Shown here: piece by piece, positions 8,849-47,788 of the stretch
Numbering within the stretch: position 1 is the stretch's first letter
Layout: each line of letters starts with the position of its first letter
Origin: Promethearchaeota archaeon
GTDB lineage: Archaea; Asgardarchaeota; Lokiarchaeia; Sigyniarchaeales; SOKP01
DNA length: 64,000 nucleotides
Assembly (NCBI GenBank): GCA_048938895.1
Contig: JBHLLU010000003.1
Span: forward strand, 68,331-132,330
Reading direction: 5' to 3'
The notes under the pieces: model-generated
Database searches by the model: none
Told to the model about the DNA's origin: nothing
The model's input: only the letters and a program-made list of their open reading frames with translations
Made by a program: the position numbers and the translations under genes

Positions 8849-9895
8849 TTGTATATGCTAAGGCAAGTCTATATTTTGAAAGAAGGGAACATATTATATA
8901 ACAAAAATTTTGGAAAATCTCTTTCAATTGAAGATTTCCAAAAGCATATTCAAGAGATTGTTGAAGAGACCGAAAAAGGAACAAATTTAGATAGTTATGA
9001 TTATTTCAAGTATAAAATTGTATATTCTCAAGTAGAAAATGAGGATTTAATGTTTACTTTCGTAACAGATATAAATGATGATGTTAGAAGATCGAAAGAA
9101 GAATTAAATAAATTAAAGAAAGAATTTTTAGATACTTTTGGTGATAATTTAGATGGTTTGGATCCAGTACTTATGGAGATACTAGCTCCAATTATAGACA
9201 CCATACATAGAAATCTTAAAACAAAAATATCCTTAGTTGGGTTTTCTGGAGTTGGGAAGACCACCACAACGAATCTCATCTGTGCTGATGAAATCCCTTC
9301 TGTTCACATCCCTACTATCACGGGGAAAATCTCTACAGTTAAGATTGGCAAGTTATATTTCCATTTATGGGATTTTGCTGGACAAGAACAGTTTAGTTAT
9401 CTTTGGAATGATTTTATCCTTGGTAGCGATGCTGTACTTATAATTACAGATTCTACATTAGAAAATGTAGAAAAAAGTAAATTTTTTATTGAGTTAATAA
9501 AGGAACACGCTCCTTATGCTCATACTGCGGTAATAGGTAATAAACAAGATCTGCCTGATGCATTATCTATAGAAAAAATCCAAGAGATATCGGGAGTGAA
9601 AACATATTCAATGGTAGCAATCGATCCCAACAACAGAGACAAGATGATACAAATTGTAGCAGATATTTTAGAAATCAACACAGATGTATCTCCATTGTTG
9701 AAACCATTATTTGAAAGAGATCAACTTATAAATAAAGCTAGAGAATGTTTGGAAGGTGGTGATATAGCCCAAACCGCCGAATATTTTGAGAAGATATCAG
9801 ATCTCTGCCTTGAATTAGGAGATGATACGCTATATAAGGAGTTTGATGAGAAAGCAAGAAAACTCAAGAGCTATTTAACAAAGAATGAAAATTAA
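8849..9895 (+). CDS. Small GTPase with N-terminal longin-like domain and C-terminal helical hairpin
   Basis: G1 GFSGVGKT, G2 PTI, G3 WDFAGQE, G4 NKQD. ~120 aa N-terminal extension (RQVYILKEGNILY...LMFTFVTD). Confidence 0.85.
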   Translation: MYMLRQVYILKEGNILYNKNFGKSLSIEDFQKHIQEIVEETEKGTNLDSYDYFKYKIVYSQVENEDLMFTFVTDINDDVRRSKEELNKLKKEFLDTFGDNLDGLDPVLMEILAPIIDTIHRNLKTKISLVGFSGVGKTTTTNLICADEIPSVHIPTITGKISTVKIGKLYFHLWDFAGQEQFSYLWNDFILGSDAVLIITDSTLENVEKSKFFIELIKEHAPYAHTAVIGNKQDLPDALSIEKIQEISGVKTYSMVAIDPNNRDKMIQIVADILEINTDVSPLLKPLFERDQLINKARECLEGGDIAQTAEYFEKISDLCLELGDDTLYKEFDEKARKLKSYLTKNEN

Positions 9896-17000: not shown

Positions 17001-17939
17001 TTATTGAATAATCTGTAATATTAAATTTTCCATTTGAGGTTTAGCTGCTTCGATTTTATCCAAAATTGTTACTGTCTTTTGTAAATCTTCATCCTCATCA
17101 ATAATGAAGAGTAAGAAAAAGTCAATATTACCAAATTTGAGTACTTCAATAACGCCAGAAAATCGTTCCCCATTGTCAAAAACATCAGAAAATTCATATA
17201 GAGTTCTGTTCTCTGCAACGACGCGTTTTTGAAGTTCTAAATAAATTCCGTAAATTTTAATCTTTTGCATTAATTGTAGGTGTGGTCGATAATGCTCTCC
17301 AAGTGTTATTCCTTTAGAATCGAATAACGAAATTAGAATTGTATTATAATTTTTACTAATTTCCGCAAATAAATTAGAAACCATTTCGATTTTTTCGAAA
17401 AGCATTGATAATCCGCTAGAAAATGCATCCATGATGGATTTGATATCAAAGATTGTCGTTTCAAAGAAGAAGATACTAAAATCGTTTGAATATCTTGTTA
17501 AAGCTTGTTTTAAAGTAAGGATTCTTTTATTTATCTCTACGTCATCTACAAGTTGAGGATCGAATTTATGAAAAAGAATTGCAACCATTACATCTTCTTG
17601 ATGCTCTTTGAAAAACAATAATATCTCTTCTAAATAATCTATTGATTCAATGTACCTATCAAAATCTTGAGCATCAATAACGTAAAAAATCAAGTCTATC
17701 CCACTCAAAAATTTCTCGGGATGCTTCAAATAATCCTCCCGATAGATTCGCTGACCACCAAAATCTAATCTTGAAAATTCTAATCCCAAAAATCTAAAGG
17801 TATCTCGGGCAATTCTTCTCGTTGGCATTAATTTTGCTACTTCTTCTTCAAATCCAAACCGTTTTGTTATTGCTGTTATTATACTGGTCTTACCTGCATT
17901 ATCGAGACCTATGAAAGCTAGCTTCTTAAAAAGAATCAC
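17001..17939 (-). CDS. Rag/Arf-like GTPase with C-terminal roadblock/longin-like domain
   Basis: GLDNAGKT, PT, DFGGQ, HKFD (Rag-type G4), ETTI. C-terminal ILISLFDSKGITLG. Confidence 0.85.
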   Translation of the reverse strand: MILFKKLAFIGLDNAGKTSIITAITKRFGFEEEVAKLMPTRRIARDTFRFLGLEFSRLDFGGQRIYREDYLKHPEKFLSGIDLIFYVIDAQDFDRYIESIDYLEEILLFFKEHQEDVMVAILFHKFDPQLVDDVEINKRILTLKQALTRYSNDFSIFFFETTIFDIKSIMDAFSSGLSMLFEKIEMVSNLFAEISKNYNTILISLFDSKGITLGEHYRPHLQLMQKIKIYGIYLELQKRVVAENRTLYEFSDVFDNGERFSGVIEVLKFGNIDFFLLFIIDEDEDLQKTVTILDKIEAAKPQMENLILQIIQ

Positions 17940-22986: not shown

Positions 22987-24801
22987 TTAATCATTAAATA
23001 TTTCTATTATTAACGACTTAAGAGGGGGACTATCTTTCAATTCGAGAATTTGGCTAGTCTTATGATGTTTTTCGAGAGTTTGCCATATAGATGAATTATT
23101 TTGTAAATATTGTATAAATTTTGTTAATTTTTGTTTCGCGAGATAAGTCTGTCCCTTAAACAAATAGCAAAACGAAAAGGGGTCAATTGATTCTATAAGT
23201 AATATGTAATCCCCAAATTTAACTCGATCAAGTCCTTTAGAAAAGAATTCACTACTGAAAGAATTAAAAGCAGATAAGAAGCTGCTGAAAAGATCTTCAT
23301 CAATTTTCCATTCATCTAAAAAGGGATAAGAGAAGACTAGTGTTCCCCCTTCAGCTAAAATCAATAATAATGTAGATTTTTCCTCAAGTTCGTCTGGAAT
23401 TTCAACAGAACGTTTTCCTTGGATACGTTCTAAGATTTGTTCGGTTTCTGCTAATTTAATGCGTTCAGTTATAGGAAAAGTTTCCCAAATGTCTGAGTAC
23501 TCAAGTAGTTTATCATGTTCGGTTGAAATCCCCCATGCTAATAGATCAAGTCCATGAAAGTCAGCAATACGTTGTGCTTCAATTAACAATCTTCTTCCTT
23601 CTTCAAAATTCATTTGTATTAAGGCTAATTTTCCCTGTAATAATTTTGTTTCAGCTAACCAGTAATAATTATGTGCCTTTTCTGCTATATCCAAACTTCT
23701 GGTAATCAATGGTTGAATTTCATCTAATATATTTGGATCATTATAGATAGATAACTCTTCCAATAATAAATCACATAAGCTTCCTAAAGCATGTATTAAT
23801 GCATCACCACTAACTTTTTCTATTAGTTCTTTGTAAATTGCCTGTGCTTCTACATGATCACGCATTCTTGTACTATTTTTCAATATATAAGCTTTAGCAC
23901 CTAAATATAGAGTAGAAATATCGATTCCCTTAATTTTCGATTGATTGTATAGGTCAGAAAAACGGGAGAAATAACGATTAGCTATATCAATAGAATTTTC
24001 ATCAATATGATTTCCAATTAATAAGCTAAGGGCTAAAGCCATTGGTTGAATTAGACCCCATTTTTCAGAAAGAATCAAGCTGCGTTCAAAATATTCTATA
24101 GCTAGATTGATTTTTCCGATGACCCTATACACATATCCTAATCTAAATAAATTTCTGACTAAATGATCTGTAATATTTAGCTCTTCTGATAGAGCTAATG
24201 CCTGATGTCCATACTTTAAAGCTTGGTTGATTTCACTTTTTGTATAATACAAATTGGCTAAAATTATAAATACATCAAGTTTAGTTCTATCTCTTATTTC
24301 CTCTATTGATAAACTTAATTTACAAAATTTAAATGCTTTACCATAATCTCCTTCTTGCTCGTATATTCGTGCGATTAGAGAATAACTATCTGCAATAGCA
24401 GCATTTATACCCAGTACTTTATTGATTTCTAAACTCTTTAAAGCATAATCTAATGCTTTCTTTCGTTTATCTGGAGAATTGTATATATATCCTAATAGAA
24501 GATAAGTTGTTGCAAGACCCAAATTATTTTCTAATTTCTGTTCTTCAGTCAGTCTTAGGCATTCACGTGCTAGTTCTTTTGCGTTAATAATATTGCCTTT
24601 CAAGAGGAATATCCAAGCCTTTATTCTTAATAGATCTATTTTGATAAAATCTATCGAGGGATCATCTGCATTAGTTTTTAATAATCTTTCAGCATCTTGG
24701 ACATAATGAGTTGCATTGTCTAGATCCCCACTAAATGCTATATTTGCTTTTCTTATAAGAGTTCTCGCTTGCTCTAATTCTCTTGGGGAAGAATTGGTCA
24801 T
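22987..24801 (-). CDS. TPR protein with C-terminal longin-like domain
   Basis: TPRs (YLLLGYIY...KALDYALKSLEI; LFRLGYVY...AIEYFERSL). C-terminal LLLILAEGGTLVFSY...LFSSFLSAFNSFSSEFF...FSFCYLFKG. Confidence 0.8.
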   Translation of the reverse strand: MTNSSPRELEQARTLIRKANIAFSGDLDNATHYVQDAERLLKTNADDPSIDFIKIDLLRIKAWIFLLKGNIINAKELARECLRLTEEQKLENNLGLATTYLLLGYIYNSPDKRKKALDYALKSLEINKVLGINAAIADSYSLIARIYEQEGDYGKAFKFCKLSLSIEEIRDRTKLDVFIILANLYYTKSEINQALKYGHQALALSEELNITDHLVRNLFRLGYVYRVIGKINLAIEYFERSLILSEKWGLIQPMALALSLLIGNHIDENSIDIANRYFSRFSDLYNQSKIKGIDISTLYLGAKAYILKNSTRMRDHVEAQAIYKELIEKVSGDALIHALGSLCDLLLEELSIYNDPNILDEIQPLITRSLDIAEKAHNYYWLAETKLLQGKLALIQMNFEEGRRLLIEAQRIADFHGLDLLAWGISTEHDKLLEYSDIWETFPITERIKLAETEQILERIQGKRSVEIPDELEEKSTLLLILAEGGTLVFSYPFLDEWKIDEDLFSSFLSAFNSFSSEFFSKGLDRVKFGDYILLIESIDPFSFCYLFKGQTYLAKQKLTKFIQYLQNNSSIWQTLEKHHKTSQILELKDSPPLKSLIIEIFND

Positions 24802-24958
24802 TTTTATGGATTGCACTGTATAGATTAAAATTAAGGAAGACAAATTTCCTTAAAAGCGTTATGGAAAAAACTTACATCGACTGTAATTGAAATGTTTTAT
24901 ATTTCTCTTCTCCTTGAATTCAAAATTTTAAAATATTTTACCTGTATTTATTACCATT

Positions 24959-27898: not shown

Positions 27899-28018
27899 AT
27901 GAAATTACCTGAAGAACAGGAAGAAAGTGAAGAAAAGGAACCAAGAAATATCAATGGCTGTCCTTATAGTACTAAAGAGTTAATCAATTGGATTATTGTG
28001 AAATTGGTGAGAAGATGA
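27899..28018 (+). CDS. Putative 39 aa peptide (not in the ORF track), coupled to the 7TM gene
   Basis: MKLPEEQEESEEKEPRNINGCPYSTKELINWIIVKLVRR*. Its TGA overlaps the next ATG (ATGA 28015-28018). Confidence 0.5.
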   Translation: MKLPEEQEESEEKEPRNINGCPYSTKELINWIIVKLVRR

Positions 28019-29097
28019 CAATAAGTGTTGAGAATTTAATACTAGTATTATCAACGGTTATTGCAGCAACTTTATTCTTGGTTGGGGGGATAATCACTTT
28101 CTTAAGTGCTATTAAGCGAAAAAGTCCACTAGTCTTTTTATTCTCTGCTAGTTGGATATTGCAAGCGATTTTTTGGTATCTAGATTCTGTGGCTCATTTG
28201 TTGTATTCATTCTTTCTCATGAGAGTAGCATTTATTCCTCAAAGTATTGGAGTTCCATGTATGTTTATTTTTCTAGAGTTGATAAAGAAAGAAAATGTAA
28301 ACCCAATCAAAATGATCTTGTTAGCATTAATAGAAACCACTTTTTTAATGTTATTATTTTTACCTGGAGCTATGGAAGTTATCCCTGGTTACGGTGTCCA
28401 TTTTGTTGGACTTACACGTTTTTTTCAGATAATCTGGCTAGTTTACTATGTGTTATTTTACCTAAGTTGGAGTTATCAAACATATAGAAAAGCCCCTCAA
28501 GAATTAAAGAAGCTAGTAACTCAGCTACTTTTTGGAAGTATTTTATTTTCTTTAGTGACTACTGTATTTTATGCAATGGGTACAATTTATAGAATGTTTA
28601 ATCCACTAGGATTCATTATACACGGAATAGGAGCACTTATAACTATTATAGTAATATTGAAAGATCCCTCAATTATATATATCTTACCTTTTAAAGCATA
28701 CAGACTTCTAGTCTTCGAAACACAAAAGGGTATTACTCTGTTTAAGCATGACTGGGCTGAATTAAGAGCTATAGAAGAAAATGTCTTTTCTATGTTACTT
28801 CAAGCAACAAGAAGTGTCTTAAACGAAATTATAAATAAAGGGGATGTACGCAAAATCGATTTGGACAAAGCCGTTCTCCTAATTCAACATGATGTAAAAT
28901 ACCCCGTTGTTTCAGCGTTAGTAACATCGAAATCTAGTAAATCATTGTTATTTGGCTTAAAGAAATTTCATGATGAGTTTACTATCAAATTTCTTTCTGA
29001 TTTGGATGATCTAATGGACATTTCCAAGTTTAAAAAAGCAGATGATCTTATAGAAAATATTTTTGATTTCATACCAAAATATGGAGGGAAATCTTAG
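28015..29097 (+). CDS. Seven-TM membrane protein with C-terminal longin-like domain (copy 1)
   Basis: Seven hydrophobic segments, then YRLLVFETQKGITLFKHDW...FSMLLQA...VVSALVTSK. GGTGA SD precedes ATG 28015. Confidence 0.75.
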   Translation: MTISVENLILVLSTVIAATLFLVGGIITFLSAIKRKSPLVFLFSASWILQAIFWYLDSVAHLLYSFFLMRVAFIPQSIGVPCMFIFLELIKKENVNPIKMILLALIETTFLMLLFLPGAMEVIPGYGVHFVGLTRFFQIIWLVYYVLFYLSWSYQTYRKAPQELKKLVTQLLFGSILFSLVTTVFYAMGTIYRMFNPLGFIIHGIGALITIIVILKDPSIIYILPFKAYRLLVFETQKGITLFKHDWAELRAIEENVFSMLLQATRSVLNEIINKGDVRKIDLDKAVLLIQHDVKYPVVSALVTSKSSKSLLFGLKKFHDEFTIKFLSDLDDLMDISKFKKADDLIENIFDFIPKYGGKS

Positions 29098-29187
29098 ACT
29101 TCATTTGTCTTACAAATTTATTTAAATAAATATATCTTAAGAAAAGTTATTGCTGTGAAGATTGTTAAAATCTAATGTGATCCAACA

Positions 29188-30285
29188 ATGATCAGTTTTG
29201 ATAATTTAATGTTAGTATTATCTGCATCGTTAACTGGAATCTTTGTAGGAGTAGGAGGCCTAATTACTTTCTTTTACGCTCTAAAGAAAAAGAATAACCT
29301 TATATTTTTATTTTCAGCATTGTGGTTATTATATTCCATATATTGGTTTATTGACGCAGCTGCTCACTTCTTCTATTCGAAAAGACTTATGACTTGGGCT
29401 ATTGTCCCGGAACTAATAGCTGCTCCATGTATTATAGTTTTTATTGAGCTTAGTAGGAAAGAACATGTAAATCCTGTAAATATTACAATGTTAATTGTTA
29501 TCGAATTTATTTTGCTAATGGTTACCTTTTTACTCCCCTTAAATGAAAATTATGAAGTGATTCAAGGTTATGGAGTTCATAATAAGGGTATCATTCGTGT
29601 AATTCAGGTAATTTTCCTATTTTATTTTGTTACTCAATATTTTTTATGGAGCTTTAAAACTTGGAGGAAAGTACCTCTGGAATTCAAACGTTCAGCCACG
29701 TGGCTTTTATTTGGCAGTACACTATTTTCTATAATAACAGTGTTAATGTATGCTATGGGAGGATTAATAAAAATTTTTAATTCACTCGCGTTTTTTACCA
29801 ACGGAATAGGGGCATTTATTACCATAATTGTGATCTTACAAGATCCAAAGATCATCTATATTTTACCTTTTACAGCTTATAGAGTATTAGTAGTTGATAC
29901 AAATGAAGGAATAGCACTTTATAAGTATGATTGGGCTGATATAGGAGAAGTTGAAGAAAATATTTTTTCGATGGTGTTACAAGCGGTTGGGAAGGTTTTA
30001 GACGAGATTTTAAAGAAAGGGGAAGTACGCGAAATTCAGATGGATAGAGCTGTATTACTTATTCAGCATGATAAAAATTACCCAATCGCCTCTGTTTTAG
30101 TCACTTCAAAATCTACAAAATCCTTAAGATCCGGTCTTAGAAAATTTAATGACCAATTTATTTTGAAATACTATCATAAAAATGTTGATGTGCATGAAGT
30201 AAGCAAATTTAGCGAAGCGAATATACTAGTACATAAGATCTTTGATTTTATTCCAGAAAGAAAAACTACATCGAAAGAAACTTGA
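29188..30285 (+). CDS. Seven-TM membrane protein with C-terminal longin-like domain (copy 2)
   Basis: Full-length paralogue of the preceding gene (shared GYGVH, DP.IIYILPF.AYR, EEN.FSM.LQA, AVLLIQHD). Confidence 0.75.
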   Translation: MISFDNLMLVLSASLTGIFVGVGGLITFFYALKKKNNLIFLFSALWLLYSIYWFIDAAAHFFYSKRLMTWAIVPELIAAPCIIVFIELSRKEHVNPVNITMLIVIEFILLMVTFLLPLNENYEVIQGYGVHNKGIIRVIQVIFLFYFVTQYFLWSFKTWRKVPLEFKRSATWLLFGSTLFSIITVLMYAMGGLIKIFNSLAFFTNGIGAFITIIVILQDPKIIYILPFTAYRVLVVDTNEGIALYKYDWADIGEVEENIFSMVLQAVGKVLDEILKKGEVREIQMDRAVLLIQHDKNYPIASVLVTSKSTKSLRSGLRKFNDQFILKYYHKNVDVHEVSKFSEANILVHKIFDFIPERKTTSKET

Positions 30286-30483
30286 ATATACCTAGTTTTA
30301 AAAACCTATTCCAGTTAAATCAAAATCCACTAATTTTTTTTTATAAAAACTTATAATTTTTTTATTAATTCGAAAATAATTCAAATTAAATTAGAAATAA
30401 CTTTAAATATCCAAATATATGTTTTATATTAGGCGTATATTTCAAGAATTTATATTTCATTAGAAAAACGGGGTGAAGTACAT

Positions 30484-31449
30484 ATAGAAGATTCACTATT
30501 ATTCTTTCATGAAGAAAAGGATTCCGAAAAGAAGCTTTTTAAGATTCTATTCACAGGTTTGGATCAAGCAGGAAAAACTAGCATTATTTTAGCTTTGCAT
30601 AGAGAATTCTCAAAAATAGCTGTAATTGAACCTACAAGAGGTGCTCAAAGAACAACTTTTAAATTTTTAGGAAGAGAAATTTCTGAATGGGATTTAGGAG
30701 GTCAAAAGAGTTATTTAATTTCATATCTAAAAAACCCTAGTAAATTTTTTGCCGATACAGAAATTGCAATTTATGTTATTGATGTATTAGATTCTTCTCG
30801 TATAAATGAATCTTTAAGCTATTTATTTGATGTTATTGAGAAATTTAAAGAGCTGAGAATTGAACCACCATTAAATATTTTCTTCCATAAATGCGATCCT
30901 AAATTAATTCATAGGGTAGAAAACGAAATCGAAGCACAAATCGAAGAATTAAAGAAGAAAATAAATGAAACAGCTAAATATAAGAATATTAACTTTTTCT
31001 GCACTTCAATATACGATCCATTTACAATAATGAGTTCTATGTCTCAAATATTATTGGAGCTCTATCCAAAATCAGAACTAATTCAAAAAACTATCGAAGA
31101 ATATGCAAGAAAGTTAGACTGCGAAGGATTAATTATAATTGATAAAAATTCGATTATATTGGGTTCCTGTTTCAAGGATGATGAGTCTAAAAAGCTTTTA
31201 AGCAGCACAATTGGTTATTTCCTAAGCATTAATGATGTATTTGAGGATTTGGAGTTAGATCAACAAGAGGATCAAATTGTTGTTCGAAAATCCGGAAGAT
31301 ATTTCTTATTCAAGCCGATTCTTTTCAAAGATTCTGATTTACCGTATTATATGCTTTTACTGAAAAGGCATAATCCATTTGATATATATTTTATAAATAA
31401 GGATTTTAGTATTTTCGTAAATCTTTTTGAGGATATTGTTAAAAATTAA
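30484..31449 (+). CDS. Rag/Arf-like GTPase with C-terminal roadblock-like domain; start uncertain (ATA proposed)
   Basis: KILFTGLDQAGKT, PT, WDLGGQ, HKCD, CTSI. The track start (TTG 30559) lies inside the P-loop, and the frame is open back to TAG 30430-30432. Confidence 0.8.
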   Translation: MEDSLLFFHEEKDSEKKLFKILFTGLDQAGKTSIILALHREFSKIAVIEPTRGAQRTTFKFLGREISEWDLGGQKSYLISYLKNPSKFFADTEIAIYVIDVLDSSRINESLSYLFDVIEKFKELRIEPPLNIFFHKCDPKLIHRVENEIEAQIEELKKKINETAKYKNINFFCTSIYDPFTIMSSMSQILLELYPKSELIQKTIEEYARKLDCEGLIIIDKNSIILGSCFKDDESKKLLSSTIGYFLSINDVFEDLELDQQEDQIVVRKSGRYFLFKPILFKDSDLPYYMLLLKRHNPFDIYFINKDFSIFVNLFEDIVKN

Positions 31450-47224: not shown

Positions 47225-47788
47225 ATGTCGTATCGCGGAAAGGTCATAATGTGTGGGGACGCATCAGTAGGTAAATCTACTTTATTGGCACAATATGTAG
47301 ATAACCAATTTAGTGAAAAATATGTCCCAACCATTGGAGCTAATTTTTTAATAAAAGAAATTGATCTAAGTCCGATAATTAATAAACTTGAGATAGATAA
47401 TCCAAATCTAAGAGAAGATATACAAAAAAAAGGATTTAAGCTTTATTTTTGGGATATAGGTGGTCAACAAGACAAATTATTCAGCAATGAATACTATTTT
47501 GTTCAAGCTGTCGGTGCTTTTATAATTTTTGATATTTTAAATAGAGAATCATTCGAGAATGTCAATTTCTGGCTTCAAAAGGTAAAAGAACTGAGTGGAG
47601 AAATCCCAATTATTATTCTTGGCAATAAAATAGATAGGATCAACGAAAGAACTGTTTCCTTTGAGGAAGCTAAAAAAATGGCTAGTGATTTTGGGCTGGA
47701 GTGTATTGAGACCTCCGCAAAAACAAATGAAAATGTTGATGAAGCTTTTGAGAGGTTGGCAATTTTAATCTTAAATAATCTAAGATAA
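47225..47788 (+). CDS. Rab-like small GTPase (no prenylation tail)
   Basis: GDASVGKS, PTIG, WDIGGQ, GNKID, ETSAK. Confidence 0.92.
   Translation: MSYRGKVIMCGDASVGKSTLLAQYVDNQFSEKYVPTIGANFLIKEIDLSPIINKLEIDNPNLREDIQKKGFKLYFWDIGGQQDKLFSNEYYFVQAVGAFIIFDILNRESFENVNFWLQKVKELSGEIPIIILGNKIDRINERTVSFEEAKKMASDFGLECIETSAKTNENVDEAFERLAILILNNLR

Follow-up and report, generated by a model that had tools for sequence, protein, structure and literature searches.

Two neighbouring genes for membrane proteins, here called A and B, lie on the plus strand of a 64,000-nucleotide stretch of archaeal DNA (assembly GCA_048938895.1, contig JBHLLU010000003.1, positions 68,331 to 132,330), which we call the window. 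The G+C content of the window is about 30%, and the source is an Asgard genome of 4.65 Mb in 174 contigs. Both proteins combine a seven-transmembrane (7TM) bundle with a longin-like domain, and the next gene on the same strand encodes a Rag-like GTPase (Table 1). Our analysis indicates that A and B belong to a real, unannotated family of receptor-like proteins, most likely membrane sensors, with a link to the GTPase next door that is possible and weakly supported.

Table 1. Features of the locus, in positions of the window (ORF, open reading frame)
Feature	Position	Strand	Size or residues	Remarks
7TM-longin protein A	28015..29097	+	360 aa	ORF, start, AlphaFold2 model, fold matches, topology
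A, 7TM domain	28015-28686		residues 1-224	
A, longin domain	28687-29094		residues 225-360	
A, GYGVH	28387-28401		residues 125-129	
7TM-longin protein B	29188..30285	+	365 aa	paralogue of A, same architecture; seven hydrophobic segments
B, GYGVH	29566-29580		residues 127-131	
B-GTPase spacer	30286..30483	+	198 bp	AT-rich
Spacer, T9 run	30334-30342			
Spacer, T7 run	30357-30363			
Spacer, TTTAAATA	30402-30409			
Spacer, GGGGTGA	30470-30476			
Rag-like GTPase	30484..31449	+	321 aa when counted from ATA 30484	G domain and C-terminal roadblock
Apparent relic ORF	27899..28018	+	39 aa	overlaps start of A (ATGA)
TPR protein	22987..24843	-	618 aa	C-terminal domain of the same longin type as A and B

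Fold and topology of the paired proteins

An initial annotation, made from the letters of the DNA alone, had read A and B as paralogues with seven hydrophobic helices each and a soluble, longin-like C-terminal domain. This description holds, and the paralogue pair is an old one. The two proteins share 53% identity over 356 residues (E 4e-136), and ATG 28015 is the correct start of A, since the resulting N terminus agrees with B and with the homologues. A Kyte-Doolittle scan finds seven hydrophobic segments in each. We built an AlphaFold2 model of A from an alignment of 87 family sequences, with a predicted local distance difference test score (pLDDT) of 94.0 and a predicted template modelling score (pTM) of 0.90. 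Its helices span residues 5-35, 38-63, 66-92, 97-114, 132-159, 162-188 and 195-216. A pTM this high over the whole chain means that bundle and longin domain are predicted as one docked unit. Basic residues cluster in loops 1-2, 3-4 and 5-6 and after helix 7. On average there are 11.5 lysines and arginines in the predicted inner loops versus 2.0 in the outer ones, and the inner count is the larger in all 87 sequences, which places the N terminus outside and the longin domain in the cytoplasm. Neither A nor B matches any Pfam family.

The annotation had also drawn attention to a conserved GYGVH loop. In the model of A, this motif lies within a beta hairpin (residues 120-130) in the loop between helices 4 and 5. 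Its conservation stands for A, B and their subfamily, where Y126 and G127 are invariant in an alignment of 19 sequences, and fails across the 87-member family (Y in 24/87, G in 37/87, H in 20/87). Judged by these alignments, GYGVH is a subfamily mark only. The polar residues conserved in the subfamily near the outer face are H61, Y126, R135, Q138, Y186 and N196.

The C-terminal domain of A (residues 227-357) runs beta-beta-alpha-beta-beta-beta-alpha-alpha. DSSP assigns strands to residues 228-235, 241-246, 280-282, 287-292 and 298-304 of the model and helices to 255-272 and 309-325, with short helices after. This is a longin fold, a five-stranded beta-beta-alpha-beta-beta-beta sheet with C-terminal helices and no N-terminal helix. 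Solved longin domains match it, with Z scores of 13.1 for the Sec22 longin (123 residues), 12.9 for TRAPPC4 (root mean square deviation, rmsd, 2.8; 121 residues), 12.7 for Fuzzy (rmsd 2.7; 121 residues), 12.1 for VAMP7 (118 residues) and 11.6 for AP-3 sigma. The longin-like domain is thus borne out by its fold and by solved-structure matches at Z 12-13. Foldseek searches with the domain list AP2 sigma, TRAPP and Mon1-Ccz1 at E values around 1e-2, none of them at 1e-3 or below. By sequence, the Pfam longin families have no match in A or B, and among the 87 members Fuz_longin_1 matches two (best E 9.6e-4) and Intu_longin_1 one (E 0.052); a sequence profile search of the PDB returned no longin. 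A hidden Markov model (HMM) of this longin type matches 34 ORFs of the genome, in varied architectures that include single-pass membrane proteins and TPR proteins. One of them (L004 1267-3363; G000:C133) is a large protein that crosses the membrane once and has an extensive outer domain; the same longin type occupies its cytoplasmic tail and is followed by a helix-turn-helix-like end.

The bundle resembles a class of prokaryotic sensor modules. We compared the transmembrane profile of the family with a profile of 10 genuine HisKA_7TM domains taken from Asgard genomes, and hhalign aligned the two over 198 columns with a probability of 91.7%, an E value of 7.7e-7 and a score of 48.1. This score exceeds all 31 controls: the reversed profile reached 18.0, the best of 20 block shuffles 36.0 and the best of 10 column shuffles 15.6. 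Weak Pfam matches point the same way, with 7TMR-DISM_7TM in 5 of the 87 sequences (best E 0.0026) and HisKA_7TM in one (E 4.9e-4). The structural neighbours of the bundle in the Atlas are the 7TM modules of histidine kinases (HisKA_7TM), GGDEF and HD proteins, whose TM scores of 0.66-0.74 serve as leads only. On profile and structural likeness, then, the bundle would be a distant relative of the HisKA_7TM class. No Pfam 7tm family matches A, B or the 87 members. The fold comparison that the annotation had proposed, against HisKA_7TM, G-protein-coupled receptors (GPCRs) and rhodopsins, finds matches to all three, the Z scores for GPCRs being generic.

In structure, the bundle comes closest to an enzyme, the human alkaline ceramidase 3 (ACER3; Z 15.1, rmsd 3.6, 197 residues), and adiponectin receptor 2 also matches (Z 12.0); values of this kind are common for helical bundles. 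One could read A and B as intramembrane enzymes or transporters akin to alkaline ceramidase and PAQR proteins, the longin domain being a regulatory add-on. Hydrolases of this group (CREST) depend on a conserved zinc site built from a set of His, Asp and Ser residues. Across the 87 sequences, P161 is the sole nearly invariant residue of the bundle, none of its His, Asp or Ser positions being conserved to that degree, and Pfam gives no match to such families. We rejected the CREST hydrolase reading on the lack of conserved catalytic-type residues, and consider the wider enzyme or transporter reading very improbable.

The 7TM-longin family and its fusions

An exhaustive search for relatives of A and B returned 557 clusters (at 50% identity) with E values of 1e-3 or below, and 438 at 1e-10 or below. 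Most are about 355-365 aa long and match from end to end. All come from Asgard taxa and are named "hypothetical protein" in their sources; the closest relatives in public data are labelled Hodarchaeota, Hermodarchaeota or Promethearchaeota. By profile search, family members occur in 52 of the 121 Asgard genomes sampled (30 of the 51 high-quality ones), with up to 8 copies per genome. Literature searches turned up no description of a 7TM-longin architecture; the supplementary tables of Liu et al. (10.1101/2020.10.19.343400) may list the family.

Conservation is distributed very unevenly along these proteins. Across the 87 sequences, the linker between helix 7 and the longin domain and the longin domain itself contain twelve nearly invariant positions (P218, L224, P225, F226, G239, W247, G276, L311, F318, F322, F350 and P354), and the bundle only P161. 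As far as conservation tells, this is a variable putative input joined to a conserved putative output. The same pattern would also suit a passive membrane anchor or scaffold, in which the bundle senses nothing and holds a Ragulator-like longin platform that recruits lipid-free Asgard GTPases or roadblock/longin proteins. The genome also has this longin type on many further anchors and scaffolds (among the 34 HMM matches), which is consistent with such a role, as is the reported lack of lipid-modification machinery for Asgard GTPases (PMC4917890). The conserved polar residues of the outer face (H61, Y126, R135, Q138, Y186 and N196) exceed the needs of an anchor, though, and both the HisKA_7TM kinship and the kinase fusion described next indicate signalling. 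We think it quite unlikely that the bundle is only an anchor.

Among the genome matches with long open frames, we found members fused to further domains. The clearest is G071:C63 (L086 624-2501), a protein of 625 aa in which the bundle (residues 1-224, E 5e-39) and the longin domain (225-354, E 1e-24) precede a HisKA domain (396-463) and a HATPase_c domain (509-616). It is a 7TM-longin sensor histidine kinase, in which the bundle is joined to a signalling output of the kinase kind in the cytoplasm; A and B themselves have no such fusion. Together with the HisKA_7TM likeness, this relative strengthens the proposal of the initial annotation that the pair forms a membrane sensor. Other fusions include an alpha/beta hydrolase end in P0268 and a weakly matching winged helix-turn-helix (wHTH) end in another member. 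A search for longer homologues gave no fused protein at 631-2000 aa, which is weak evidence. Two further matches are of comparable length to G071:C63, namely G117:C483 (627 aa) and G030:C234 (547 aa). Fusions of longins with two-component domains have a precedent in the same archaea, for which Liu et al. (10.1101/2020.10.19.343400) report many NPRL2-like examples.

Tandem copies are frequent close to A and B and rare elsewhere. Twelve of the 15 public loci of the A/B type have two co-oriented copies, one lies at a contig edge and two have a single gene. In a quick tree, B groups with the first genes of a sister set of pairs, which we call Loki-type (support 98), the second genes of these pairs form their own clade (support 100), and A, together with its orthologue in L016, falls outside both groups. 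From this placement, B seems to keep an adjacent paralogue of varying type. Duplications also arose independently in distant subfamilies, with three copies in a row in MK-D1 (L021) and two recent ones in a Helarchaeota genome. In the whole family, co-oriented tandems account for 18 of 113 full-length matches. Since most members are not in tandem, a heterodimer cannot be obligatory for the family; it is possible for A and B, and the family does not require one.

The genome that carries A and B has a second tandem pair (L055; G000:C113:23416-25675), two co-oriented genes for proteins of 370 and 380 aa separated by 47 bp. They belong to a more distant 7TM-longin subfamily and have neither Pfam matches nor a GTPase neighbour. 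A third paralogue (L003 1240-2733; G000:C95) is 26% identical, has about 130 extra C-terminal residues and stands beside a gene for a 246-aa protein of no known family. Its ORF crosses a run of 100 Ns and its N-terminal segment is repeated, so that the assembly is unreliable there.

The Rag-like GTPase and gene neighbourhoods

The gene that follows B is indeed a Rag-like GTPase in the same orientation, as the initial annotation had it. Its G domain matches Pfam Gtr1_RagA with 82.5 bits (cut-off 22; E 4e-23), and a C-terminal roadblock domain, the second element of Rag/Gtr proteins, can be traced in an AlphaFold2 model (pLDDT 72) as an alpha-beta-beta-alpha-beta-beta-beta-alpha succession after residue 196. 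Among solved proteins it is closest to 8YL2 (E 6e-90, 40% identity), deposited as "RagA-like small GTPase from Asgard Lokiarchaeota (LokiRagO)" under a title that speaks of a homotetramer; RagA, RagC and Gtr1 come next. The G4 motif reads HKxD, a Rag trait. The start of the gene is peculiar. No in-frame ATG, GTG or TTG precedes the P-loop, and the ORF listed from TTG 30559 would drop strand 1 and the first P-loop glycine. The orthologues in loci L014 and L016 start with TTG at the place where the window reads ATA (30484-30486). This ATA could be a rare start codon, a recent loss of the start or an assembly error.

Gene order has been used to tie this GTPase to the pair. The corresponding model, put forward by the initial annotation, is that A and B pair up as a heterodimer, the longin domains of which would together serve as exchange factor, GTPase-activating protein or docking platform for the adjacent GTPase, making one receptor-GTPase unit. 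The three genes are co-oriented and adjacent in the window, and the pair, or B, stands in this position before the Rag-like gene in 2 of 26 public loci (L014 and L016) and on an independent metagenome contig from another study (X5), which has A, B and the GTPase together. The two public loci share the whole gene order, and they and the contig all come from close relatives. Hence, the conserved linkage that the annotation expected was not borne out. There is some structural logic to the model, because the longin domain matches longins of guanine-nucleotide exchange factors (Fuzzy and TRAPPC4 by Z score, Mon1-Ccz1 by Foldseek, and two members weakly Fuz_longin_1 by sequence), and because the roadblock domain of the GTPase could stack on a longin dimer; the retention of an adjacent paralogue by B-type genes in 12 of 15 close loci would also fit. 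Against it stand the confinement of the adjacency to the nearest relatives, the presence of B without A in L014, the location of the pair and the Rag-like orthologues on separate contigs in G113, and the missing standard start codon of the GTPase in the window. The spacer between B and the GTPase is a further difficulty. Archaeal transcription terminates at oligo-T tracts, and the T runs in these 198 bp suggest that B and the GTPase are likely to have separate transcripts. Finally, GTPase genes are dense in this genome, where they make up 105 of 4161 ORFs, with at least four in the window including the Rag-like gene. We regard the heterodimer-GTPase unit as unlikely. As read from gene order, a coupling of the pair to the adjacent GTPase would be possible and is weakly supported. 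The other three GTPase genes of the window, located by tblastn at 9209-9580 (+), 17286-17924 (-) and 47231-47758 (+), include a paralogue that shares 38% identity with the Rag-like gene.

A looser association with small GTPases is common among the near relatives. In 14 of the 15 A/B-subtype loci, a small GTPase is the next gene or the next but one; the exception is L013, with no GTPase beside its A/B-type genes. In the 11 Loki-type loci of the sister clade, the pair is followed by a convergent gene for a 183-aa Ras-family GTPase and by a wHTH-TPR gene. Within L012, a TPR-longin gene intervenes between the pair and the Ras-family GTPase, and in G008 such a gene takes the place of the pair. The Loki-type pair of L009 (DATKTW010000167.1), with a Ras-like ORF of only 96 aa that is perhaps frameshifted, lies on a contig labelled "Candidatus Nanopelagicaceae bacterium", which is probably mis-binned Asgard DNA. 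In the source genome, a GTPase is the nearest neighbour on either side of 4.9% of genes and lies within two genes on either side of 8.8%. Relative to this background, we rejected a general link between the longin type and GTPases in this genome, since 4 of its 33 loci lie within two genes of a GTPase, close to the 8.8%.

A stand-alone 7TM family of about 250 aa provides another connection. It is homologous to the bundle, as hhalign gives a probability of 96.3%, an E value of 1.5e-9 and a score of 66.1, against 20.7 for the reversed profile and at most 34.4 in 15 block shuffles. A GTPase, often Arf-like, lies within 1.5 kb in 11 of its 30 loci, which represent a few orthologous groups. In the genome of A and B, one such locus (L053; G000:C133:5205-9077) is a tight set on one strand, in which genes for a DUF2070 membrane protein, the 7TM protein (256 aa) and an Arf-like GTPase (174 aa) are followed by one that shares 4 nt with the GTPase gene and encodes a protein of 186 aa. 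The arrangement is conserved in G008 and G049. The 186-aa protein has a winged-helix-like C terminus, and compared as a single sequence with longin and roadblock profiles it has no detectable likeness to them (probability below 1%). At another locus of the genome, C88, an Arf-like GTPase is divergent from a 7TM gene.

The remaining features of the locus concern its surroundings. A and B are separated by 90 bp on the same strand. Upstream of A lie an MFS transporter gene on the minus strand, an aminotransferase gene and the gene of the TPR protein; downstream of the GTPase is a gene resembling ADP-forming acyl-CoA synthetases. The TPR protein matches Pfam TPR_12 and others as well as the longin HMM (E 1.3e-6), and its homologues occur near the pair or near a Ras-like GTPase in L012, L019 and G008, a loose co-location. 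The 39-aa ORF before A is 62% identical to the N terminus of a 532-aa PGA_cap-like membrane protein gene that stands in L014 (4203-5801) where A would be, and both end in the same KLVRR before the stop. Judging from this alignment, the short ORF appears to be the relic of a longer membrane gene after an internal deletion, and the site has been rearranged between close relatives. The sequence TTTAWATA occurs 43 times in the window, where 42 are expected by chance, and therefore the TATA-like boxes upstream of B and of the GTPase carry no weight.

A candidate receptor and its place among known systems

The fold, the topology, the family and the combinations of domains are what the analysis shows, and on them we can build a tentative mechanism. 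On balance, we lean towards the reading that A and B are Asgard membrane receptors, in which the 7TM bundle brings in an input from outside and the docked cytoplasmic longin domain is transmitter and output. The variable outer face, to which the subfamily-specific GYGVH hairpin belongs, would sense a signal that alters the bundle. The change in the bundle may then reposition the longin domain or alter the state of a longin dimer. Where the protein is 360 aa long and has only the longin domain in the cytoplasm, this domain would pass the signal on by protein contact. The partner most likely comes from the small GTPases, or from the roadblock or longin proteins; the Rag-like GTPase next to the pair is one candidate only, with a rather small chance of being the right one. 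A bolder version, which we think doubtful, is that the 7TM-longin pair is a ligand-gated membrane platform that recruits or switches the Rag-like GTPase here, and Ras- or Arf-like ones elsewhere, so that Asgard archaea couple receptors to GTPases via longins.

Several results weigh against the receptor reading and should be kept in mind. On the input side, the likeness to HisKA_7TM stays below the Pfam thresholds, profile scores can be inflated by the composition of membrane proteins, and the GPCR matches (Z 12-13.8) lie in a range common for helical bundles. Kinase fusions are rare: one is confirmed, and at most two more, by length, are present among the 113 full-length matches. The A/B subtype itself is patchy, found in 2 of 121 genomes at E values of 1e-40 or below and in neither of two other genomes of the same genus. 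As to the GTPase, the 14 GTPase-adjacent loci amount to two arrangements only, eleven of them being one inherited layout, and in G071 this site lacks the pair but has both the Ras-like GTPase and the wHTH-TPR gene. At the 11 distant family loci, the two ORFs closest to the family gene on each side never include a GTPase, and in the source genome the loci of this longin type that lie within two genes of a GTPase number only the four mentioned above. The Rag-like GTPase is, moreover, far more widespread and conserved than the pair, at 69% identity or more in the 120 clusters listed from several Asgard groups, and so does not depend on it. Still, the HisKA_7TM likeness, the 7TM-longin histidine kinase and the stand-alone 7TM sister family near Arf-like GTPases are new here, and in combination they make the unit most likely a sensor and transmitter.

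This could have implications for a standing question, how the numerous small GTPases of Asgard archaea are targeted and regulated. These proteins are reported to have no lipid-anchoring machinery (PMC4917890). In MK-D1, they are generally encoded outside operons with roadblock or longin genes (PMC10933270), which makes their partners hard to assign. A widespread, unannotated family that joins a longin domain to a sensor-type bundle offers concrete candidates for membrane platforms of these GTPases. The kinase-fused relative indicates that a 7TM-longin unit can also feed a classical two-component pathway, which puts the family where prokaryotic sensing meets the eukaryote-like longin and GTPase parts. 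If the coupling of receptor and GTPase were true, this would be a prokaryotic pathway assembled from components that serve Rag, TRAPP and Mon1-Ccz1 signalling in eukaryotes, and it would explain how lipid-free Asgard GTPases gain access to the membrane. If the GTPase link fails, there would still be a new class of archaeal receptor input, of narrower interest.

The comparison with known systems brings out what is shared and what is not. Eukaryotic GPCRs have the same seven helices with the N terminus out and the C terminus in, and receptors of class A, class C and the adhesion type match the bundle structurally, but searches of Pfam and PDB profiles found no sequence relation and no heterotrimeric G protein is involved. 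The longin SNAREs (Sec22, VAMP7 and Ykt6) are, like A and B, longins tethered to a membrane, and Sec22 is the top longin match; their order is the reverse, with the longin domain at the N terminus before a single C-terminal anchor, and A and B have no SNARE motif. Mon1-Ccz1, Fuzzy-Inturned (CPLANE) and Bet5/Trs23 of TRAPP (TRAPPC1/C4) share with our proteins the longin fold, the paralogous pairs and the small GTPase genes nearby. These complexes are soluble and contain several longins or subunits, whereas A and B, known from genes and models, each have a single longin domain on a membrane bundle.

In the Ragulator-Rag system, with its membrane sensors SLC38A9 and LYCHOS/GPR155, membrane proteins and roadblock/longin platforms position and regulate Rag GTPases. 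A and B are likewise embedded in the membrane and have a Rag-like neighbour with a roadblock domain. Ragulator differs in being anchored by the lipidated LAMTOR1 and not by helices, SLC38A9 and GPR155 have no sequence relation to A and B, and mTOR is absent from Asgard archaea (10.1101/2020.10.19.343400). The neighbouring GTPase itself, compared by PDB titles and by sequence, is related to LokiRagO (8YL2) and LokiRagM (8ZLA, 9M28) and has the same two-domain build. The bundle can also be set beside the HisKA_7TM (PF16927) and 7TMR-DISM_7TM (PF07695) receptors, among them sensor histidine kinases. The cytoplasmic part of A and B is a longin domain only, unlike the kinase, cyclase or HD domains of those receptors, and in the fused relative the longin domain stands between bundle and kinase, unlike in HisKA_7TM kinases. 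They otherwise share one plan, with seven helices at the N terminus and a signalling part in the cytoplasm after them; the profile likeness is above the controls, such receptors are among the structural neighbours, and one member of the family is itself a histidine kinase.

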